In this document: positions 7,289 to 24,000 of the stretch, piece after piece
Layout of the letters: each line of letters starts with the position of its first letter
Numbering within the stretch: the first letter of the stretch is position 1
From: Pradoshia sp. D12
GTDB taxonomy: Bacteria; Bacillota; Bacilli; Bacillales; Pradoshiaceae
NCBI RefSeq assembly: GCF_008935075.1
Contig: NZ_CP044545.1
Span: 2,769,587 to 2,793,586 of the forward strand
DNA length: 24,000 bases
Direction of reading: 5' to 3'
Position numbers and translations under genes: made by a program
The notes under the pieces: generated by a model
What the model saw: only the letters and a program-made list of their open reading frames with translations
Databases searched by the model: none
What the model was told of the DNA's origin: nothing

Positions 7289-7911
7289 AGCCCATCACCC
7301 CCTTCATTTAATCCGATTACAATTTTATTTGAATCGATCCCCCATATATTAGATAGTATTGTGGATAGTTCGGATGACGGTATATCATTCATATTGGTTT
7401 GTTTCTGATCAATGTTAATATCAATTTTTTCTACGGGCTGCACAACCTCTGAGCTGGACTCTTGGCTTTCTGCCACAAATACGTGTATGGTTTCAATATT
7501 TTCTACATTCATTTCTCCATTCTTATCCAAAAGTGTAATTGTAATATCTTGAATGGCATAATTACTTTGGTCCATCAGCTCCTTTTCTGCTTCATTCTTT
7601 AATTGGACAGCCATATGTTCCAATATATATGCCTGCTGTGTCTCTTCTATTTCTCTTTTCTTACTTTCCATTGAATTTTCTAATTTTGGATTTTTCCATG
7701 TACTGCTCTGCATGATTTTTTCCTGAATGTTACTTGTAAAATTTTTATTAAAAATAGATAGAATGGGAGCGATGAAAACAGCGATCAAAAGTAACCCGAT
7801 AACTAGCTTTGTATATTTCTGCATGGTCGAGTTTGGGAGAAGCATGTCCAAAATGATCGCAAATAAGATAAAAACGATTATATTAGTTACCCAGTCAGTT
7901 AAAATACTCAT
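7285..7911 (-). CDS. spoIIIAF: Stage III sporulation protein AF
   Basis: 208 aa with two N-terminal TM helices (VTNIIVFILFAIILDMLLP and LVIGLLLIAVFIAPILSIF). Operon position supports the call. Confidence 0.85.
   Translation of the reverse strand: MSILTDWVTNIIVFILFAIILDMLLPNSTMQKYTKLVIGLLLIAVFIAPILSIFNKNFTSNIQEKIMQSSTWKNPKLENSMESKKREIEETQQAYILEHMAVQLKNEAEKELMDQSNYAIQDITITLLDKNGEMNVENIETIHVFVAESQESSSEVVQPVEKIDINIDQKQTNMNDIPSSELSTILSNIWGIDSNKIVIGLNEGGDGL
7482..7510 (-). promoter_or_regulatory. Candidate internal sigma-E-type promoter inside spoIIIAF, upstream of spoIIIAG
   Basis: The minus strand reads GAATGTA-N14-CATACACG, against the sigma-E consensus kmATATT-N14-CATACAmT. An internal promoter ahead of spoIIIAG is known in B. 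subtilis. This is a motif match by eye only. Confidence 0.3.
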
Positions 7912-15351: not shown

Positions 15352-15744
15352 GTGAATCGTAAGAATTCGATGATTATTATTTATATCCTTCTTGGTTTCG
15401 CAGCTTTGGGGTTAATTTCCACTTTGATAAATAACCCGTTCGAACTAATTAAAAACGTACTCATTGGAGCCGCTGTTGTTGGGTTGATTTATTTTGTTAT
15501 TACACGATTCAGGAATGGTAACTCGGGTGGAGAGTATCAGGCATACAGGAAAGCAGCCCGAAAAACAATCAAGAAGAAACGTAAACATGAAATGATTAAA
15601 ACAAAAAGAAGCAAACATAATACACATGGATTAACTGTCATTTCTAAAGAACAGCTGATTAACAGACCTAAGAAAAAGTCAGATGTCAAACTGACTGTCA
15701 TAGAAGGAAAGAAAGCACGTAAAAAAAACCGGGCCCTTTTTTAA
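15352..15744 (+). CDS. yqhP: Small membrane protein with a Lys/Arg-rich tail (YqhP equivalent)
   Basis: The start is set at GTG 15352, with AAAGGAGGTG (15337-15346) ending 5 nt upstream. This gives 130 aa with two TM helices and a basic C-terminus. It lies in the syntenic position after yqhQ. The track's upstream extension to 15292 lacks an RBS. Confidence 0.7.
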   Translation: MNRKNSMIIIYILLGFAALGLISTLINNPFELIKNVLIGAAVVGLIYFVITRFRNGNSGGEYQAYRKAARKTIKKKRKHEMIKTKRSKHNTHGLTVISKEQLINRPKKKSDVKLTVIEGKKARKKNRALF

Positions 15745-15769
15745 AGAGTTCGGTTTTTTACGTGCTTTC
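15711..15769. terminator. Long imperfect inverted repeat between the convergent yqhP gene and the last island gene; putative bidirectional terminator
   Basis: GAAAGCACGTAAAAAAAACCG (15711-15731) pairs with CGGTTTTTTACGTGCTTTC (15751-15769), giving about 19 bp with a 2-nt bulge. The left arm overlaps the yqhP 3' end. On the minus strand a T-rich stretch follows; on the plus strand no clean U-tract does. Confidence 0.45.
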
Positions 15770-15901
15770 GTTAAAGAACAATATGATTGATACTTTAATC
15801 CTTATTTCACCTAACGGGTAAAATTAGAATAATAAGCTAGGGTGATTATAATAAAGGATAATCCATAAGTTATAGATTAAAAGTTTAACTGATAAATTGA
15901 C

Positions 15902-16510
15902 TTATTTAAATTCTCCACGATACAACCATGGAAAAAGGCCATCTAAAAATCGTTCAGTTGCCGGCATAAAATAGGAACCATAATGATAGTCAGGATCAAG
16001 AGTCGTAATAATCCAAGTGCCCTTAGTTGATTGTTCATCTATATACAGTACAGATCCGCCATCATCCGTAGCTATAAGTGTGGTAGCATGCTCTGGTGGC
16101 CAAAATACTCCGTGTTGATGCCATGTTGAATCCTCAAGCGTAATATACTTAAAAAATTCATGGTCATCATTTTTAGTTACTAACCCACTATTTGCATTTT
16201 CTTCAAGCCACCACCAAAAATTCGTCTCGCGTTCTTCCCATTTTTGATTAGGGAGCCATTCCCATGGCTGTGGACCCATAGCCACAATAATACCGCCCTG
16301 ATCAGCAAACTCATAGAACTTCTCTTTATTATCAAGCAGTATTTGACCATTTAATTGAGAAGGAACAATCAACACATCAAATCCTGTTAAATCAAAATCT
16401 TTCAATTCAAGCTGATAAATAAGAGAGTCTATGAATTGCGCATACTTTGGCTCATGAAAAGTTCTATAATGCGGCGCATGCCCGCCATAAATCACAGCTA
16501 TTTTTCTCAT
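15902..16510 (-). CDS. Uncharacterised cytoplasmic protein, paralogue B of a two-gene pair; possibly ThuA-like / class-I glutamine-amidotransferase-like fold
   Basis: 202 aa with no signal peptide or TM segment. The ATG shares one nucleotide with the upstream stop (TAATG at 16512..16508), and AAGGAG lies upstream inside the preceding gene. By eye it is about 35-40 percent identical to the upstream gene in two blocks (VLIV...KEKFYEFADQGGIIV..G...EWLP and PPEHA...DGG..LYID..STKGTWI). The fold assignment is pattern recognition only. Confidence 0.7.
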   Translation of the reverse strand: MRKIAVIYGGHAPHYRTFHEPKYAQFIDSLIYQLELKDFDLTGFDVLIVPSQLNGQILLDNKEKFYEFADQGGIIVAMGPQPWEWLPNQKWEERETNFWWWLEENANSGLVTKNDDHEFFKYITLEDSTWHQHGVFWPPEHATTLIATDDGGSVLYIDEQSTKGTWIITTLDPDYHYGSYFMPATERFLDGLFPWLYRGEFK

Positions 16511-17127
16511 TATGCCTCAACTCCTTTGGTGCGTACTATTTCCTTCTTAAGAACCTCTATAAAATGAGGAGTTATTTGATTTGTTGTGTTTTTCCGCTGA
16601 CCATATCCTAATAAACTCCTGCCAGCATGAACAATAACTGTCCCATTCGTTGTTTCACGATCAATGTACGTAATGGCCTTACCATCTGTAAATGTTAGGC
16701 AAATCTCCGCATGTTTCGGTGGCAAATAAAAACCTCTTGCAAAGAAACCTGCAACACCCTTCGTATATACCATATCCTCTACTTTTACACCTTTAAAAAT
16801 CGGTGAATCCTCAGGAACCTCTACTAGGTAATCCTGATGGCCGCGAATCTTCTTCGGCATCATTGGCGTACAGCCTGGCAGCCATTCTCTGAATAAGTGG
16901 CCACAAAAGACAACAATCTTTCCTTCGTTTAAGAATTGCTCTATTTTTTCTTTATGTTTATACAAATACTCCTGATCTGCAAAATCCGTAATAACCAAAA
17001 CTTTGTATGGAGCCAATTCAATGTTTGCAAACTCATATTCCATTAATTTAGTATGTTGACCGGATGATAATTCTGTTTTATAACCAAATGCATGATTCGG
17101 ACATAGTTCCAGTATTTTAAGTTCCAT
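16510..17127 (-). CDS. Uncharacterised cytoplasmic protein, paralogue A of a two-gene pair; possibly ThuA-like / class-I glutamine-amidotransferase-like fold
   Basis: The start is set at ATG 17127 (MELKILELCPNH...), with AAGGAGGAG at complement 17131-17139. This gives 205 aa. The track's 12-codon upstream extension runs towards repeat unit 1, overlaps it by 13 nt (17151-17163), and has no RBS. Conserved blocks shared with the downstream gene are VLVI...KEKIEQFLNEGKIVVFCGHLFREWLP and PPKHA...DGK.ITYIDRETTNGTVI. Confidence 0.7.
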   Translation of the reverse strand: MELKILELCPNHAFGYKTELSSGQHTKLMEYEFANIELAPYKVLVITDFADQEYLYKHKEKIEQFLNEGKIVVFCGHLFREWLPGCTPMMPKKIRGHQDYLVEVPEDSPIFKGVKVEDMVYTKGVAGFFARGFYLPPKHAEICLTFTDGKAITYIDRETTNGTVIVHAGRSLLGYGQRKNTTNQITPHFIEVLKKEIVRTKGVEA

Positions 17128-17150
17128 TGTATCTCCTCCTTGTGTTGAGT

Positions 17151-17273
17151 AATCTAGCTTCAACTCCTAACTCCTCGAGTCATAAGTGTAGCCACTACAG
17201 GAGGAAAGATCACCTCCCTACGTGCCTCCTCTTATGCTTGTCGGAGCTGGGCAGTCGTTTCAGCTTTTTGCGC
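17151..17273 (+). repeat. Repeat unit 1 (basic form, about 120 bp)
   Basis: AATCTAGCTTCAACTCCTAACTCCTCGAGTCATAAG + central hairpins (TGTAG-CCA-CTACA and GGAGG...CCTCC) + CTTATGCTTGTCGGAGCTGGGCAGTCGTTTCAGCTTTTTG. It ends 11 nt from the RBS of paralogue A. Confidence 0.85.
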
Positions 17274-17520
17274 AATCTAGCTTCAACGGCTAGAAGCTCA
17301 GGACATAAGCATAGTCTCTGCGGAGGGCTACAGGACGTAGGTCACGAAGGCGTTGCCACACGATGTGGCGCTCTTAGCCTTTGTTCCTTAAAGCCTTCCC
17401 CTACGAGCCTCTGTCTTATGCTCTTCGCGGGCCTACAGGATGTAGGTCATGAAGACGTTGCCACACGACGTGGCGCATTTAGTCTTCGTTCCTTAAATCA
17501 GCCGTCTCAGCTTTTTATTT
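17274..17520 (+). repeat. Repeat unit 2 (basic unit carrying two copies of the ~65-nt B module)
   Basis: Positions 17274-17428 recur at 17769-17923 with 153/155 identity (mismatches at 17389 and 17393). Positions 17414-17518 recur at 17662-17766 with 105/105 identity. Confidence 0.9.
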
Positions 17521-17768
17521 AATCCAGCTTCAGGGCCTAGCCGCTCGAGGTCGTAAGAATAGCCACTACGGAGGCCAACACGATGTTGGTCACAAAGACG
17601 TTACCACAGGATGTGGTGTCTTTAGTCTTTGTTCCATCAAACACTCTCCCTGCGCACCTCCTCTTATGCTCTTCGCGGGCCTACAGGATGTAGGTCATGA
17701 AGACGTTGCCACACGACGTGGCGCATTTAGTCTTCGTTCCTTAAATCAGCCGTCTCAGCTTTTTATGT
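17521..17768 (+). repeat. Repeat unit 3 (diverged head and diverged B module, then an exact copy of the unit-2 tail)
   Basis: The head AATCCAGCTTCAGGGCCTAGCCGCTCGAGGTCGTAAG is diverged. The B module at about 17573-17637 has compensatory stem changes. Positions 17662-17766 are identical to 17414-17518. Confidence 0.88.
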
Positions 17769-17953
17769 AATCTAGCTTCAACGGCTAGAAGCTCAGGACA
17801 TAAGCATAGTCTCTGCGGAGGGCTACAGGACGTAGGTCACGAAGGCGTTGCCACACGATGTGGCGCTCTTAGCCTTTGTTCCTAAAAACCTTCCCCTACG
17901 AGCCTCTGTCTTATGCTCTTCGCTTCTGGGCAAGCCGTTTCAGCTTTTTATTC
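17769..17953 (+). repeat. Repeat unit 4 (near-exact copy of the first 155 bp of unit 2, plus a short tail)
   Basis: Positions 17769-17923 match 17274-17428 with 2 mismatches. The tail is TTCTGGGCAAGCCGTTTCAGCTTTTTATTC. Confidence 0.9.
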
Positions 17954-18073
17954 AATCTAGCTTCGACTCCTAGGAGCTCGAGTCATAAGCAAATACTCTG
18001 CGGGGAAGAACTTTCCCTTCGAGTATTCGTCTTATGCTCTTCGCTCCTGTTCAGTCGTCTCAGCTTTTTATTT
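17954..18073 (+). repeat. Repeat unit 5 (basic form); overlaps the 3' end of the ABC ATPase gene
   Basis: Contains the 10-bp palindrome CTCCTAGGAG (17968-17977) and a long hairpin, CATAAGC-AAATACTC-TGCG-GGGAA...TTCCC-TTC-GAGTATT-CGT-CTTATG. It ends CAGCTTTTTATTT. The ATPase stop codon (17983-17985) lies inside it. Confidence 0.88.
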
Positions 18074-18771
18074 TCAAAGTAGTAGCATGCCTCTACTAAT
18101 TTTTTTGTGTAGGGATGTGTTGAGTGGTTTAGAACTTGAGAAGGAGGTCCGCTTTCGACAATGGTCCCTGTCTCAAGTACCATCATTCGATCTGCTACAT
18201 TACCAACAGACTGAATTCGGTGCGTAATGTATAAAACAGACATATGGAATTCAACCTGAAATTTCTTTAATAGATTGATGATTAACTTTTCTGTTTGCGG
18301 ATCCAGAGCAGATGTAATTTCATCGGCTATTAAAAGCTTAGGATTCATTAATAAAGCTCTAATAATAGCTAATCTCTGTTTTTGTCCTCCGGAACATTGG
18401 CTTGGTTTTTTTGCTAATAATTCCGTCGGTAAGTCCGCCTTAGCCATTAATTCTTTTATTTTCTTTTTTATTGATTCCGGCTTTTCCTTTTTAAGTACAA
18501 GCGGTTCCATTAAACTTTTCTCCATTGTCCAAAACGGGTTAAAAGAACGCTCCGGATTTTGATAAATATATTGAATCGTACAACATGGCTCTTTTTCAAC
18601 AAGTCCGCTTGTCGGTGATTGAATTCCCATAATAATTTCAGCCGTTGTAGATTTACCTGACCCTGATTCTCCTATCAAACAAATAAATTCATTGCACAAA
18701 ATCTCAAAATTGATTCCCCGAAGCACATCCTGATTTTGGTAGCTTTTATTTACATCTTGAACTCTTAACAT
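17983..18771 (-). CDS. ABC transporter ATP-binding protein, Opp/Dpp/Nik family (OppF/NikE-like), with a repeat-encoded C-terminal tail
   Basis: 262 aa. Walker A is GESGSGKST, the signature is CSGGQKQRLAIIRAL, Walker B is LLIADEITSALD and the H-loop is YITHR. The HPYTKKL motif typical of this subfamily lies near the expected C-terminus. The last ~29 codons (NKKLRRLNRSEEHKTNTRRESSSPQSICL) read through repeat unit 5. Confidence 0.9.
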   Translation of the reverse strand: MLRVQDVNKSYQNQDVLRGINFEILCNEFICLIGESGSGKSTTAEIIMGIQSPTSGLVEKEPCCTIQYIYQNPERSFNPFWTMEKSLMEPLVLKKEKPESIKKKIKELMAKADLPTELLAKKPSQCSGGQKQRLAIIRALLMNPKLLIADEITSALDPQTEKLIINLLKKFQVEFHMSVLYITHRIQSVGNVADRMMVLETGTIVESGPPSQVLNHSTHPYTKKLVEACYYFENKKLRRLNRSEEHKTNTRRESSSPQSICL

Positions 18772-20265
18772 TCATTGCACTTCCTTCATCAGTTGTTTAT
18801 CACTTAAACTAAAAATCCGATCCGAGATTGCATACGCTACATCTAAATCATGCGTGATAAATAATAGACTGATCCCATGTGAACGGACTTTTTCCTCCAA
18901 GAGTTCCACTACTTCTTTTTTCAATATAGGATCCAGCGCACTTGTGCATTCATCTGCAATCACAAAAGCTGGTTTATTTACCAGAGAGAGTGCGATTAGA
19001 GCCCGGCTCAACATGCCGCCGGAGCACTCATGCGGATACTTGTCCAAAATGTTTTTATTTAACGCGACTTCCACAACACTCTTCTCAGCTTCCACAAGAC
19101 TTATACCGGTTTCTAAAAACTGTTCTTTTATTTTTAATACTGGATTAAATGCCGCCCGTGCATCCTGATAGATAAATGAGCATGTTTTCCAGTAGTGCTT
19201 TTCTCTAAAGGATTTCTCGCGAACAGACTCACCGTCATATGTAACATCGCCAACCCAGTTCTCAGCCGGCAATAATCCGTACAAAGCTCTGGCTATCGTT
19301 GTTTTTCCACTGCCTGAAGGCCCAATCAAACTCACAATCTCTCCTCTTTTGATCGTAAGCTCGATATTTTCAACAATAGTAGTCTCGTCATATGTAACCT
19401 GCTCCAAGTGACAATATAAATCGCGAGACTTGCCGGTCACTGGTGTTGTACCCTTTTGTTTCTTTGTTTTTGAAGACTTCTTCTGTTTATCTTCCAATAA
19501 GAAAGCAAGCGAAACCGATGTGATGAGCAGCATAATCACTGGCGGCAATACAATCCATGTCCATTGGCCAGTTAAGAAAATAGATGTTTGTGTGAAAGCC
19601 ATATTTAACATGCTTCCCCAAGATATCACATTCGGGTCACCCAAACCTAGGAATGCTAAACCTGCTTCTGTCAAAACAGCAGATTGAAATGTCATCACGA
19701 ATTTAGTCTTTATGATGGGCTGCAATTGCGGAAGAATATGAGATTTCAATACATAAAAAGAACTGCCACCAAACAGCGCCGATGCTTTTACAAATTCTCT
19801 TTCTTTTAATGTTAAAACTGAGGATCGAATAATTCTCATATAACCCGGCCACGATAAAAGACTTAAAATGATTACAAGCTGAATTACACCAGAACCCGTA
19901 AAAGCAACAACCAATAATATCAAAAGCAAATTTGGAAGCACTAATAAAATATTGGCCAGCCCGTTAATGAATTTATCGAATTTCGGCAAATATCCCGCTG
20001 CCAGTCCCAGCAATACACTTAAAACTGTCGAACACAGAGCAATACAAAGTCCAATTAAGACACTTGTACGGGTTCCATATAATAATTGGCTAAATATATC
20101 CTGACCTAAACGATTTGTACCCAGCCAATGCTCAGATGAAGGAGGTTCAAACAATCCTCCGCTATAATCCATTGCTGAATAAGGAGAAAGTAATGGACCA
20201 AAGAATGCCAACAGCATGACCACGGCTAAACAAAGTAAAGGGAACTTATAGAACTTTTTCAACAT
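18772..20265 (-). CDS. Fused ABC permease (OppC/DppC/NikC-like) and ATP-binding domain (OppD/NikD-like)
   Basis: A single open frame. The N-terminal ~270 aa are polytopic. A Lys-rich linker follows (EDKQKKSSKTKKQKGTTPVTGKSRD). The NBD has Walker A GPSGSGKTT, signature CSGGMLSRALIA, Walker B FVIADECTSALD and H-loop FITHD. The start is set at ATG 20265 (MLKKFYKF), with GAGGGGG upstream. The track start at 20283 is a less likely extension. Confidence 0.88.
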   Translation of the reverse strand: MLKKFYKFPLLCLAVVMLLAFFGPLLSPYSAMDYSGGLFEPPSSEHWLGTNRLGQDIFSQLLYGTRTSVLIGLCIALCSTVLSVLLGLAAGYLPKFDKFINGLANILLVLPNLLLILLVVAFTGSGVIQLVIILSLLSWPGYMRIIRSSVLTLKEREFVKASALFGGSSFYVLKSHILPQLQPIIKTKFVMTFQSAVLTEAGLAFLGLGDPNVISWGSMLNMAFTQTSIFLTGQWTWIVLPPVIMLLITSVSLAFLLEDKQKKSSKTKKQKGTTPVTGKSRDLYCHLEQVTYDETTIVENIELTIKRGEIVSLIGPSGSGKTTIARALYGLLPAENWVGDVTYDGESVREKSFREKHYWKTCSFIYQDARAAFNPVLKIKEQFLETGISLVEAEKSVVEVALNKNILDKYPHECSGGMLSRALIALSLVNKPAFVIADECTSALDPILKKEVVELLEEKVRSHGISLLFITHDLDVAYAISDRIFSLSDKQLMKEVQ

Positions 20266-21238
20266 GTTTGCCCCCTCTAACACGTGGATCTAGTTTAGGA
20301 TAAATAGAATCTGCCAGTGCATTGCAAATCAAAATCATAACAGCAAATAATAAAAACAGACCATGCATCAATGGGTAATCCCGTGAAAGAATGGACTCTT
20401 TTAATAACTGCCCAATTCCCGGGTAAGAAAATAACGTCTCTACAAAGATTGCTCCTGTAAAGGTGTAGCCAATTCTTATCATAATCAGAGTAAATATAGG
20501 TATTAAAACATTTTTAAACGCATGTCTGAAAACTAACCGGATTTCCCTGACGCCCTTCATCTTCGCAAATTCAATGTAAGGTGAGGAAGCTACCTGAATC
20601 GTTTCATTACGCACGAGTAAATAGATCCTTGTCAGGTTTACCATGGTTAATGTCACTATTGGTAAAATAGCATACTTAGCCGCATCATTAACTTTTACCC
20701 ATATTGATTCGCTATCCATAAACGGTGTATGGGCTCCGCTCATTGGAAGCATATCCAGCATAACTCCAAACACAATAAGCAATAGCATACCGAATAAAAA
20801 TTCGGGTAAAGCGCCAATTGCCAGCATTGTTGACATGAATGTTTTATCACCTTTTTTATGATGAACCCAACCCGATAGCAGTCCTAAAAAAATACCAATT
20901 ACAATGGATAGAACAGAAGAAATTCCGACAATCCATAGCGTGTAAGAAATATGGTCCATTATGATATCATTAACAGGCAATTTATAAGTATATGAAAATC
21001 CAAAATCAAACTGTACGATGCCAACTATATAATCAATAAATTGTTCGGCCATTGAATCATTCAGCCCATAATATTCAATCATTGAATTCTTTTGTTGCTC
21101 TGTTAAAGTTGCACCACTTTCCTGCCCCTCTAAATATTCAAGAGGTCCCCCCGGCATTAGTCGAGGAAGAAAAAAATTTAAGAGAATCAAGATAAGAAGA
21201 AGAGAACCGTACAGCTTAAAAATTTTAATCATATTCAA
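20246..21238 (-). CDS. ABC transporter permease, OppB/DppB/NikB-like
   Basis: 330 aa with six predicted TM segments. It has the binding-protein-dependent transport EAA-type loop region (YIEFAKMKGVREIRLVFRHAFKN) and a C-terminal ...DPRVR motif. It overlaps both neighbouring genes. Confidence 0.9.
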   Translation of the reverse strand: MNMIKIFKLYGSLLLILILLNFFLPRLMPGGPLEYLEGQESGATLTEQQKNSMIEYYGLNDSMAEQFIDYIVGIVQFDFGFSYTYKLPVNDIIMDHISYTLWIVGISSVLSIVIGIFLGLLSGWVHHKKGDKTFMSTMLAIGALPEFLFGMLLLIVFGVMLDMLPMSGAHTPFMDSESIWVKVNDAAKYAILPIVTLTMVNLTRIYLLVRNETIQVASSPYIEFAKMKGVREIRLVFRHAFKNVLIPIFTLIMIRIGYTFTGAIFVETLFSYPGIGQLLKESILSRDYPLMHGLFLLFAVMILICNALADSIYPKLDPRVRGGKHVEKVL

Positions 21239-22808
21239 TAAACGCTGCCTTGTTATCTGTTAATGGAATTCCGTCTGAAATACCACCATATGTGTTAAAC
21301 CATTCATCAAATACATTAGCATCATAAACAAAGTAGAACGGGCGATGGTAAATCACTAATGTAGGCAGCTCTTCAGCTAAAATATCCTGCATAGAATCAA
21401 CTGTTTCGTTACGCTCTTCCCCTTCTTGAGACAGTTGTTTACTAGCCAACTCGTTAAATTCTTGATGATTGAATACAGCATTCCCAGCATATGCATTGCT
21501 TGCCTGACCAGAGAACCATAAGCGGAGGAAATCAGGATCCCCACTTAATCCAATGTGCCCTGTTAAAGCCATATCATATTTCCCTTCACTCATAGCAGTT
21601 GTAAAAGTAGCTGTATCTACTGTTTGAATTTGCAATTTCACCCCTACATCAGCAAGCATTGATCTCATTAATTCGGCTTCCTGAGGAGTAGAAGAAACCA
21701 GAAGTTTTAAGCTAAGCTCTTCTCGAACACCATTTTTATTTTTTTCATATCCGAGTGAATCTAACATTTCATTTGCTTGATCCACATCATAATCATATTT
21801 TTTTACATCTTCATTAAACCAATCCGAATCAGGTGGAATTACCCCTCCGCTACCAACAATGGTTTTGGAATTCCCCAATACTTTTTCTGCTATTTCACCT
21901 CGATTAAGTGCATAGGCAATTGCTTGACGTAGCCTTTTATCACTTAACTGTTCATTTTCCAAATTAAAAACAATACGAACTGCGCTTCCTGTTGGATTAC
22001 TTTGAAGCGCTTTAAACCCTTGTTCTTCCATTTGCTTCACTTCTGTATAGTTATACGTCATGCCGCCGGTTATTTCCCCTTTTTGCAGGGAGAGCATTTT
22101 ATTCTCTACATTCAAATATTGAACTTCCTTAACCGTAACATCACCTTTGAAATAAGCCTCATTTGCTAGGTAACGATAATTACCAGTCGAGCTGTTATAG
22201 CTATCAAGAACATATGGACCTGTACCTATTAATGCATTTTCTTCCGTATATTCCATTGGATTTTCGATTTCTGACCAGATATGCTCTGGTAGAATTGGAA
22301 GAATTCCGGAAATTTCAGTGATAAATGGGGAATATTCCTCGGTCAACGTAATTGCAACTTTGTGATTTGATATTTTCTTTAGTGAAGCTATTTTAGACAT
22401 ATCTGCATTCCACTGGAACGCATGTTTCTTAAAATAGTTATATGAAAAGACAACATCATCGGCGGTTAATGATTCTCCATCATGAAACTGCACATCTTTT
22501 TCTAAATTAAACGTGTATGTTAGCTTGTCCTCAGATACTTCCCAGGAAGATGCCAGCCAAGGAATTACCCCAGTCTCATCTTTCCAAGTAAGCGAGTCAA
22601 AAATGAAACTGCTGCGTAAATATCCTCCGGGACCATTTGAGGTAAATGTAAATGGAGATGGGAACCCACTATCTGCCCATGCAATCTTCACGGTCTTATT
22701 TTTTTCAGATGCCTTTGAATCTGTATTTGTATTTGGTGAAGTGCCACCACCTGAACATCCTGCGAGCAGGATGAATAATGATAGTAGTAAAAATGAAATC
22801 CTTTTCAT
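21225..22808 (-). CDS. Extracellular solute-binding lipoprotein, family 5 (OppA/DppA/NikA-like)
   Basis: 527 aa with a lipoprotein signal and lipobox (LLAGC, Cys18). A Ser/Thr/Asn-rich tether precedes a family-5 SBP body (SWEVSEDKLTYTFNLEKDVQFHDGESLTADDVVFSY). AAGGGAG lies 8 nt upstream of the ATG. Confidence 0.9.
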   Translation of the reverse strand: MKRISFLLLSLFILLAGCSGGGTSPNTNTDSKASEKNKTVKIAWADSGFPSPFTFTSNGPGGYLRSSFIFDSLTWKDETGVIPWLASSWEVSEDKLTYTFNLEKDVQFHDGESLTADDVVFSYNYFKKHAFQWNADMSKIASLKKISNHKVAITLTEEYSPFITEISGILPILPEHIWSEIENPMEYTEENALIGTGPYVLDSYNSSTGNYRYLANEAYFKGDVTVKEVQYLNVENKMLSLQKGEITGGMTYNYTEVKQMEEQGFKALQSNPTGSAVRIVFNLENEQLSDKRLRQAIAYALNRGEIAEKVLGNSKTIVGSGGVIPPDSDWFNEDVKKYDYDVDQANEMLDSLGYEKNKNGVREELSLKLLVSSTPQEAELMRSMLADVGVKLQIQTVDTATFTTAMSEGKYDMALTGHIGLSGDPDFLRLWFSGQASNAYAGNAVFNHQEFNELASKQLSQEGEERNETVDSMQDILAEELPTLVIYHRPFYFVYDANVFDEWFNTYGGISDGIPLTDNKAAFIEYD

Positions 22809-22842
22809 CCATACAACTCCCTTTCAACATATGATGGTTCTT

Positions 22843-22871
22843 ATCATATAACAGTTGATAATGATTATCAA
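22843..22871 (-). promoter_or_regulatory. Sigma-A-type promoter of the ABC operon
   Basis: The minus strand reads TTGATA (complement 22866-22871), a 17-nt spacer, then TATGAT (complement 22843-22848). The -10 element ends about 35 nt upstream of the binding-protein ATG. Confidence 0.6.
22856..22870. promoter_or_regulatory. Fur box, a perfect match to the Bacillus 7-1-7 consensus
   Basis: TGATAAT-G-ATTATCA matches TGATAATNATTATCA at 14/14 specified positions. It overlaps the -35 element and the spacer. A second, degenerate site, TGATGGT-T-CTTATCA (22832-22846, 11/14), overlaps the -10. The surrounding sequence continues as GATAAT-like hexamers: TGATAA TGATTA TCAATA TCATTA. Confidence 0.8.
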
Positions 22872-23051
22872 TATCATTATTTTAAAAAATTATAATCGTT
22901 TAATAAATGAGAAAAACGTCCTATACAAAATACACTATATAATGGAAAATATTACTAATATATAAAGAAAATGTTTTTATTTTCTCATTCAATTTATTAT
23001 ATCAACATATTCTTATCGTTTATAACTATTAAGAGCCACTCTTTTTGAGAC

Positions 23052-23080
23052 AAAAAAAGCACCCTACTATTAGTAGATGC
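23052..23080 (-). terminator. Putative intrinsic terminator after the patatin-like gene
   Basis: The minus strand reads GCATCTAC-TAATA-GTAGGGTGC, an interrupted stem (GCA/UGC plus CUAC/GUAG), followed by T7 (A7 at 23052-23058 on plus). It starts 30 nt after the stop codon. Confidence 0.5.
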
Positions 23081-23109
23081 TACAAAGTGTACTTGTTTAT
23101 TATTTTATA

Positions 23110-24000
23110 TCATCTGATTCGGTAAACCCAATCCTTAAGAAAATGCTTCGCCGCTTCTTTACCTTGATCAATTAATACTAGCCGCTGATTGTCAGAAATA
23201 GAAAACTCTATAAATCCCGCCTCTTTAATTGGTATAAACACAATGTTTTTAACGAATTTTCTTGAAATATATCTGGCATCATGAGCATTCCTCATCGTTT
23301 CAAATAAAGATGTAAAAAGTTCGATTGCATTATTGATATCACGCTCATGGACCACTGCTTGTTGTTTTTCTGGTACCAGCCTTAATCCCAGCACCGGTCT
23401 CTCAGCGATAACATTATCTTGATCAAACAGCCACATAGGAAAATTACTTAAAACCCCGCCATCTACGATAACCCTTTTCTCCCCTACCGTTCGAAGCGTA
23501 ATCGGCTGAAAGAAAAAGGGGACAGAGCAGCTCATACGAATCGCTCTCGCCACTAAGAACTGATTGGGGTTTATATTATATTTTGGCAGATCATCCGGCA
23601 AAACCATCAATCTTCCATTTGTTAGATCAGATGCAATAACTCTCAATTGTTTATCAGCTAAATCTGCAAATGTCCTAATATTTTTCCTGGCCAATACCTC
23701 TTTAATCCATAGCTCCAAGGCATCCCCTTTGTAAAGTCCCATACTCCAATATAATTTGAGCCATTTGGCTAGTGGAAAATGTTTATTTTTTTTTGTTTCC
23801 AATAGCTTCGTTAATTTAACGCTTTTCATAATTTCATTAATTTCGCTCCCTGAGTACCCCGCTGCTATAAACCCGGCAATGATTGCGCCTGCACTTGTTC
23901 CGGCTACTCTTTTAAACCGATATCCCTGCTTCTCTAATTCAATTACTGCCCCAATAAGAGCAAACCCTTTTATACCTCCTCCGGAAAACACTCCGTCAAT
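23110..24000 (-). CDS. yqhO: Patatin-like phospholipase (YqhO equivalent); the N-terminus runs off the right edge of the window
   Basis: Contains the oxyanion-hole motif SGGGIKG, the nucleophile elbow GTSAG (GxSxG) and the catalytic Asp motif VDGGV. The track starts at GTG 23991, but the frame stays open to 24000 (IDG upstream), so the true start is probably off-window. Confidence 0.88.
   Translation of the reverse strand: MDGVFSGGGIKGFALIGAVIELEKQGYRFKRVAGTSAGAIIAGFIAAGYSGSEINEIMKSVKLTKLLETKKNKHFPLAKWLKLYWSMGLYKGDALELWIKEVLARKNIRTFADLADKQLRVIASDLTNGRLMVLPDDLPKYNINPNQFLVARAIRMSCSVPFFFQPITLRTVGEKRVIVDGGVLSNFPMWLFDQDNVIAERPVLGLRLVPEKQQAVVHERDINNAIELFTSLFETMRNAHDARYISRKFVKNIVFIPIKEAGFIEFSISDNQRLVLIDQGKEAAKHFLKDWVYRIR

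Follow-up and report, generated by a model that had tools for sequence, protein, structure and literature searches.

Genetic organization of the locus

We analyzed a 24,000-nt stretch of DNA from Pradoshia sp. D12 (contig NZ_CP044545.1, positions 2,769,587 to 2,793,586 of the forward strand; hereafter the window), focusing on a Fur-type operator and promoter at positions 22832-22880 and on the operon that follows it. The operon is predicted to be ~7 kb long and to lie on the minus strand. It encodes a substrate-binding protein (SBP), a permease, a permease-ATPase fusion and an ATPase of an ATP-binding cassette (ABC) importer, followed by five RNA repeats and two paralogous cytoplasmic proteins, unk217 and unk202. 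Its features, in the direction of transcription, are as follows.

23051..23080, minus strand: terminator-like hairpin followed by T7, 3' of the upstream patatin gene
22857..22875, minus strand: classical 19-bp Fur box composed of two overlapping 7-1-7 repeats (18/19)
22856..22870, no strand assigned: exact 7-1-7 Fur box TGATAATGATTATCA, a unique exact match, with a homologous box in 32/39 loci of relatives
22843..22871, minus strand: predicted sigma-A-type promoter TTGATA-17-TATGAT (-35 at 22871-22866, -10 at 22848-22843)
22817..22824, minus strand: ribosome-binding site AAAGGGAG, read from the sequence, 8 nt before the ATG at 22808
21225..22808, minus strand: substrate-binding lipoprotein of family 5 (cluster C), 527 aa, lipobox LLAGC (Pfam SBP_bac_5, E=1e-76)
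20246..21238, minus strand: permease 1, NikB/OppB-like (Pfam BPD_transp_1; NCBIfam Opp2B and Opp4B below cut-off)
18772..20283, minus strand: fused permease 2 and ATPase 1, NikC-NikD-like, 503 aa (BPD_transp_1 and ABC_tran in one open reading frame)
17983..18771, minus strand: ATPase 2, NikE-like and short, 262 aa (ABC_tran; NikE 162 bits, below cut-off)
17327..17888, minus strand: five copies of the Bacillaceae-1 RNA motif (RF01690; 70.8-80.7 bits against a gathering score of 35)
16510..17127, minus strand: accessory protein A, unk217, 205 aa from the ATG at 17127 (no Pfam or NCBIfam family)
15902..16510, minus strand: accessory protein B, unk202, 202 aa (model with a GATase-like/ThuA-like fold; no conserved Cys)
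15711..15769, minus strand: long GC-poor inverted repeat with U-runs, read from the sequence, between unk202 and the convergent yqhP

By Pfam, the operon holds a complete family-5 importer set, with one SBP_bac_5 protein, two BPD_transp_1 permeases and two ABC ATPases. The best NCBIfam matches of the transporter genes other than the SBP gene were Nik, Opp2 and Cnt subunits, all below the respective cut-offs. The fusion of permease 2 with ATPase 1 was retained in all Bacillales relatives and absent from distant homologs in Chloroflexota and Clostridia; in one marine locus (L092), it was extended to an 876-aa protein comprising the permease and two ATPases. The hairpin and T7 after the patatin gene insulate the operon promoter, and the inverted repeat at 15711-15769 is a probable bidirectional terminator that would end the operon. 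For unk217, the ATG at 17127, which lies behind an AAGGAGG ribosome-binding site, is probably the real start.

A Fur box overlapping the operon promoter

The sequence TGATAATGATTATCA at 22856-22870 matched the Bacillus 7-1-7 Fur consensus used for scanning, TGATAATNATTATCA, at 14/14 specified positions. No other exact match was present in the window, and 100 dinucleotide-preserving shuffles produced none; Fur-type sites with three or fewer mismatches were not enriched (7 found versus 4.0 expected). The minimal Fur site is a 7-1-7 repeat, and two overlapping repeats make up the 19-bp box, which binds a dimer of dimers (PMC5007448; PMC11353095). Such a second repeat was present at 22862-22876 with two mismatches, overlapping the exact box at a 6-bp offset, and the two repeats combined (GATATTGATAATCATTATC, minus strand, 22857-22875) matched the classical 19-bp Fur box at 18/19 positions.

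The predicted promoter, TTGATA-17-TATGAT on the minus strand, was the top-scoring promoter-like site between 15500 and 24000 (10/12). The exact box covers 5/6 bases of its -35 element and 10/17 bases of its spacer; overlap of Fur boxes with -35 and -10 elements has been described (PMC5007448; PMC11353095). An exact Fur box on the -35 element and spacer of this promoter was what the original prediction had claimed, and both parts of the claim were borne out. The overlapping second repeat had gone unmentioned there, as had the accessory genes at 15902-17127 and the permease-ATPase fusion.

The original prediction also held that the box differs from the PerR and Zur boxes at the discriminating positions. 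This agreed with our counts: the site at 22856-22870 has two mismatches to the PerR consensus, both at discriminating positions, and four mismatches to the Zur consensus by direct count. The PerR and Zur strings used for these counts are reportedly those of Fuangthong and Helmann from 2003. No Zur-like site with three or fewer mismatches was found near the operon. The boxes of the three regulators resemble one another but are not the same (PMC4324032).

Two further candidates in the promoter region were rejected. A second site matching at 11/14 positions, said to cover the -10 element, does exist at 22832-22846 (three mismatches), but it overlaps only 4/6 of the -10 bases, is at chance level given the 7 sites found against 4 expected, and shows no conservation in the alignment of relatives; it was not counted. 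A riboswitch or leader RNA at the operon promoter was also dismissed, with no Rfam match there; the sole Rfam matches were the five Bacillaceae-1 copies within the operon.

Conservation of the Fur box with the module

A profile search with the binding protein yielded 80 loci, one per species. About 45 of these, in Bacillales, had the same transporter, including the permease-ATPase fusion, plus both unknown open reading frames. The carriers were Peribacillus, several Bacillus, Savagea, Thermoactinomycetaceae, Brevibacillus, Gorillibacterium, Tepidibacillus and many Paenibacillus. Loci were taken as testable when the accessory pair was present and the upstream DNA extended for 300 bp or more (n=39), and the 300 bp before the first module gene were scanned. 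A Fur box with one mismatch or fewer was found upstream of the first module gene in 32/39 loci, and with two mismatches or fewer in 37/39. As background, the flanking regions of these loci had 9 sites with one mismatch or fewer in 526,085 positions (0.005 per 310 bp), and a rate of 0.022 per 310 bp when two mismatches were allowed.

The Fur box tracks the first gene of the module, not the binding protein. In Bacillaceae, the binding-protein gene comes first and the box precedes it. Most Paenibacillus loci had the order 174-aa gene, unk217, unk202, transporter, and the box lay before the accessory genes. The 21-bp double repeat TGATATTGATAATCATTATCA recurred in many loci, including Paenibacillus and Bacillus. 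When ten upstream regions from different genera were aligned, the sole invariant block was the box with its fused TTGAT -35 element; the flanks could not be aligned. Within this block, the Fur-specific G2/C14 (the TGA/TCA positions separating Fur from PerR and Zur) were invariant in all ten genera. A cluster-A binding-protein gene in the Brevibacillus locus was also preceded by a Fur box, which served as an internal positive control for the motif. The Chloroflexota and Clostridia homologs (35-44% identity) lacked the box, the permease-ATPase fusion and, with the weak exception of L060, the accessory pair.

These data bear on a further reading of the site, in which a different Fur-family protein (PerR, Zur or a lineage-specific paralog) occupies it or the palindrome arose by chance and has no function. 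The boxes of the three regulators are very similar (PMC4324032), and only two mismatches separate the site from the PerR consensus. Against this stand the exact match to the Fur consensus with none in the 100 shuffles, the invariance of the discriminating positions in relatives, and the four mismatches to Zur with no Zur-like site nearby; chance is excluded because the box is kept in 32-37/39 species. We consider this explanation highly improbable, and Fur repression of the operon appears well supported by the sequence comparisons.

A recurrent sequence, TGATCCTGAATATCATTATGG, was noted upstream of Paenibacillus SBP genes. It was rejected as a regulatory element, as it codes for the conserved LDPEYHYG motif of unk202.

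Two accessory proteins with a GATase-like fold

Searches of Pfam, NCBIfam and PDB sequences gave no significant match for either unk217 or unk202. The two proteins are paralogs (hhalign probability 99.5%, E=3.7e-23). Their conserved motifs differ: those in unk217 were DQE, WLPG, KGVAGFFARG and YIDR..T.GT, and those in unk202 were TNFWWW, TWHQHGVFWPP and TLDPDYHYGSYFMPATERF, with TNFWWW, TWHQHG and TLDPxxHxGxYFMPAxE invariant. The AlphaFold2 model of unk202 (predicted local distance difference test score, pLDDT, 92) adopted a flavodoxin-like GATase1 fold of the class-I glutamine amidotransferase (GATase)-like/ThuA-like type. Foldseek with this model retrieved STM3548, lin1909, a ThuA-like protein, the IFT52 N-terminal domain and GATase subunits, with E values from 2e-5 and template-modelling (TM) scores of 0.54-0.59. 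No invariant or near-invariant cysteine was found in 46 unk202 homologs or 10 unk217 homologs. Because neither family has a conserved cysteine, the canonical Cys-His-Glu triad of amidotransferases is excluded.

A profile search of 1.84 billion representative proteins revealed a small family, with 343 members at E<=0.001. Among the top-ranking matches, many were proteins of 400-500 aa with two matched stretches: in other phyla, an unk217-like N-terminal half and an unk202-like C-terminal half are joined in one protein (for example, P0241, P0249, P0251 and P0263, from loci L090, L092 and L095). These natural fusions provide strong evidence, at the sequence level, that the two window proteins work together.

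A third gene, encoding a protein of 171-174 aa with a GHGGPGFRD motif, was observed in the module of 32 loci among those checked (for example, L012:8177-8701, L083:16091-16615, L088:3499-4023 and L092:5527-6042) and was missing from the window and several Bacillaceae. One of three sequences tested gave a weak full-length match to FmdE (E=0.0075).

The accessory pair occurs with different metal-chelate importers

To compare contexts, we examined the loci that carried the pair or its fused form. In one locus type, the fusion closed a Peripla_BP_2-FecCD-ATPase operon that diverged from a TonB-dependent receptor gene; in a second type, it had a TonB-dependent receptor/FecCD/ATPase unit on one side and a Peripla_BP_2 gene on the other. 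Elsewhere, the fusion was divergent from a different family-5 ABC system, whose SBP was 24% identical to that of the window, and a homolog of the 174-aa protein was encoded too. A Cellulosilyticum-like scaffold had the unfused pair beside nitrogenase-like genes and cluster-A importers, with no family-5 transporter. As the pair or fusion was found with differing transporters, it is the constant element, and the transporter type varies (three architectures). For genome annotation, the accessory genes mark the pathway better than the binding protein does.

This distribution weighs on the possibility that the operon encodes an ordinary importer of di- or oligopeptides or another nutrient that belongs to the Fur regulon and moves no metal, for example, as part of an iron-sparing shift. 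The B. subtilis Fur regulon does contain genes that are not for uptake, the solved structure closest to the SBP by sequence was DppA (127 bits), and CtaP and AppA were among the top structural neighbours of its model. However, the pair or fusion also occurs in TonB-dependent/FecCD/Peripla_BP_2 loci, which are metal-chelate systems, and the Fur box is maintained in about 37 species. In addition, the long C-terminal domain that characterises Opp/Dpp ATPases is missing from the window ATPases. We regard a plain nutrient importer as quite unlikely.

In two anaerobes, nitrogenase-like genes (one NifH-like and two NifD/K-like) adjoined the pair, at L086:16016-19904 (Pseudolactococcus hodotermopsidis) and at L089:5109-8279 and 18967-20612 (Cellulosilyticum-like). 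L086 also carried a UbiE-like methyltransferase gene alongside them and had no Fur box; L089 had cluster-A importers alongside. Characterised non-nitrogenase relatives of such genes (DPOR, COR and CfbCD) mostly reduce tetrapyrroles (PMC13474568). Such neighbours might point to a tetrapyrrole-type substrate, and might also help to explain what an uncharacterised nitrogenase-like clade does; as they occurred in two loci only, they were kept as a lead and not as evidence.

The binding protein and its possible cargo

The original prediction had described the gene at 21225-22808 as a family-5 SBP of an Opp/Nik-type importer under Fur control, with no cntKLM-like genes in the window, and had proposed uptake of an opine-type metallophore, haem or a metal-peptide complex. 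The SBP_bac_5 domain and lipobox, the best sub-threshold NCBIfam matches (NikA and CntA) and the gene content of the window agreed with the first part, and Fur control was strongly supported; the proposed ligands were neither shown nor excluded. The suggested structural model was made with AlphaFold2 (pLDDT 90.9), and a structure search with it did not separate NikA, NikZ, CntA, DppA and CtaP. In a Foldseek search of the PDB, CtaP, NikZ, AppA, NikA, CntA and DppA were near-equal neighbours (E values of 2e-35 to 1e-33, 19-25% identity). With all six within about one order of magnitude, assigning a ligand by structure was rejected.

The SBP scored 165.3 bits against NikA (TIGR02294; cut-off 393) and 158.9 bits against CntA (NF047575; cut-off 800). 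These were its best NCBIfam matches, the model reached its highest TM-score (0.78-0.79) with E. coli NikA, and the ATPases have the short form seen in Nik and Cnt. Such features would suit an importer of a nickel or cobalt chelate of the Nik/Cnt/Niu type, with the Fur-type box reflecting cross-regulation or a broad-spectrum metallophore (Ni, Co, Zn). A HupE/UreJ_2 gene flanking the module in a marine locus would also fit, and Peripla_BP_2/FecCD systems can carry nickel chelates in Helicobacter. Both scores, however, are far below the cut-offs. When aligned with E. coli NikA (NC_000913) by MAFFT, residues R97, R137 and H416 (E. coli mature numbering), which we take to be the Ni-(His)2 ligand residues of NikA, corresponded to F131, P171 and A455 of the SBP, positions that are approximate at ~20% identity; the three replacements are conserved in the SBP's family. 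No nikR-like gene was found in the window, no Zur-like site with three or fewer mismatches was found near the operon, and the conserved operator is a Fur box with G2/C14 invariant in the ten aligned genera. A nickel or cobalt chelate importer of this type is unlikely in our assessment.

Biosynthesis genes for a cognate chelate were also sought. Neither cntKLM-type genes nor an exporter gene was found in the window or in the loci of eight annotated relatives. Linked siderophore biosynthesis was rejected as well: a nonribosomal peptide synthetase gene followed the module only in P. thiaminolyticus and had no Fur box before it.

As for the nature of the cargo, the TonB receptors and binding proteins beside the fused accessory protein in Gram-negative loci had haem-type families as their best matches (TonB-hemin/hemlactrns, IsdE), all far below cut-off. 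These matches, together with the nitrogenase-like neighbours, are weak hints that the cargo is haem-like or a tetrapyrrole. Hints of an aminocarboxylate metallophore or another metal, likewise weak, come from the NikA/CntA-like scores, the short Nik-type ATPases and the HupE/UreJ-like neighbour.

Comparison with known systems

Iron uptake of the Bacillus type relies on cluster-A (FhuD/FeuA-like) SBPs and on well-known cytoplasmic enzymes for release, among them esterases, reductases and haem oxygenases. The operator studied here resembles the Fur operators of the B. subtilis type (dhb, feu and fhu) in its 15-bp consensus and in the overlapping repeats that form a 19-bp box (PMC5007448), as well as in its overlap with the -35 element and spacer and in having an ABC importer as its target. 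The regulated genes differ: the B. subtilis-type targets have a cluster-A SBP with FecCD permeases, whereas a family-5 SBP, a fused permease-ATPase and two accessory proteins are present here. In dozens of Bacillales from soil and gut, it is a different importer class that has conserved Fur control.

The S. aureus Cnt system is the closest precedent for a Fur-controlled chelate importer. The cnt genes comprise cntKLM, cntA-F and cntE. CntABCDF (Opp1), which imports staphylopine-metal complexes and is repressed by Fur and Zur, likewise has a family-5 SBP and short Nik-type ATPases, and cntA-F is repressed via Fur boxes on its promoter (PMC7594338). CntA was among the top structural neighbours and the two best NCBIfam matches of the SBP, yet at 159 bits against a cut-off of 800. 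Unlike Cnt, the module has no cntKLM or cntE in the window or the eight annotated relatives' loci, and no Zur-like site with three or fewer mismatches was found near the operon; the permease-ATPase fusion and the GATase-fold pair of the module are not known among the cnt genes.

E. coli NikABCDE shares the gene order SBP, permease, permease, ATPase, ATPase, and NikA gave the highest TM-score and the best NCBIfam match (165 versus 393, below cut-off); the ligand residues are not conserved, NikR is absent and the operator is a Fur box. Judged by the families' own cut-offs and residues, the regulated system is not a member of the Nik or Cnt family.

Haem is taken up via Dpp-type family-5 SBPs by E. 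coli (DppA/MppA) and Mycobacterium (Dpp), systems that likewise combine a family-5 SBP with iron-limited growth. Identity of the window's SBP to DppA is only ~25%, however, and the haem-type matches are far below cut-offs. No genes of the haem oxygenase, NEAT or HemS/ChuX type were found in the window or the eight annotated relatives' loci.

Full-text literature searches found no description of the module, which is not proof of its absence from the literature. What appears to be new is a family-5 importer with a fused permease-ATPase and a dedicated GATase-fold pair that also serves TonB-dependent systems. The strictly co-inherited pair has no family assignment, and its fused form occurs in Gram-negative TonB-dependent uptake loci.

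A model for regulation and function

We consider it likely that the site is the operator-promoter of an iron-starvation operon that encodes a Fur-repressed chelate importer together with its cytoplasmic pair. In iron-replete cells, Fe(II)-Fur would bind the 21-bp element at 22856-22876, probably as a dimer of dimers, and would cover the -35 hexamer and spacer, so that RNA polymerase is excluded by classical promoter occlusion. When iron is scarce, Fur would leave the element, and a ~7-kb minus-strand transcript for the transporter and the accessory pair would be produced. The cargo of the transporter would most likely be an organic chelate that carries iron; as the operon has no linked biosynthesis genes, other organisms would be its producers. 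The accessory pair would then most likely work as a heterodimer on the imported cargo and release or hand on its metal.

Several points weigh against this interpretation. Fur binding and the iron response are predictions, and so are the nature of the cargo and what the pair does biochemically; the window contains no fur gene. The SBP reaches no characterised family's curated cut-off and does not conserve the NikA ligand residues; it is the regulation and the genomic context that point to a metal-chelate ligand. The HupE/UreJ-like gene (HupE/UreJ_2, Ni/Co-type) that adjoins the module in one marine locus hints at a non-iron metal. No box was found upstream of the module in Pseudolactococcus (L043) or in a Tepidibacillus metagenome-assembled genome (MAG; L016). 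Finally, in this genome an 820-bp stretch with five structured RNA repeats lies between the ATPase 2 gene and the accessory genes, and because of this stretch co-transcription of the pair with the transporter is only assumed.

More tentatively, and with a probability that we place somewhat below even, the locus may belong to an undescribed iron-acquisition pathway whose defining element is, instead of the transporter, a new two-domain or heterodimeric GATase-fold cytoplasmic protein, often with a small FmdE-like partner, that processes an imported metal chelate and has been recruited to at least three importer architectures across phyla. The chelate in such a pathway could possibly be a haem-like metallo-tetrapyrrole or an aminocarboxylate metallophore of plant or microbial origin. 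Should the pair indeed free metal from a chelate after import, this would be a new step in metal assimilation, and the pair would offer a handle for finding the cargo.

Genomic neighbourhood and additional features

The operon is placed between yqhP and a patatin (yqhO-like) gene (span 15745-23110). The gene order of the window (folD, nusB, accBC, spoIIIA, efp, aroQ, yqhR, yqhQ, yqhP ... patatin) otherwise follows that of the B. subtilis yqh region. The window comes from a spore-forming member of the Bacillaceae, and the closest genome found was a Pradoshia MAG, whose binding protein was 89% identical. The neighbourhoods of the operon were quite different in other genera, and it therefore looks like a mobile, self-contained module.

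The 820-bp insert between the ATPase 2 gene and unk217 contains five full-length RF01690 copies on the operon strand. The Pradoshia MAG had one Bacillaceae-1 copy at the equivalent spot (L001:4807-4873), and five other genera had none at the equivalent place, where the genes abut. On this basis, the motif behaves like a copy-number-variable repeat within the operon. Bacillaceae-1 was reportedly listed as a non-cis-regulatory RNA by Weinberg in 2010.

No conserved genes were found outside the module apart from a frequent neighbour encoding a LysR-type regulator (L011:15274-16218, L084:14982-15947, L085:8871-9764, L088:2298-3194 and L081:8835-9740); in the window, the operon has no LysR neighbour. 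Several of these genes, in Paenibacillus, Brevibacillus and B. norwichensis, were preceded at 45-70 bp by a Fur box of their own. This arrangement suggests a second, perhaps substrate-responsive, layer of control. In Bacillaceae bacterium SAS-127, a second accessory pair (L035:7559-8866) lay just upstream of the transporter, besides the downstream pair, and had its own Fur boxes at 7565 and 8866.

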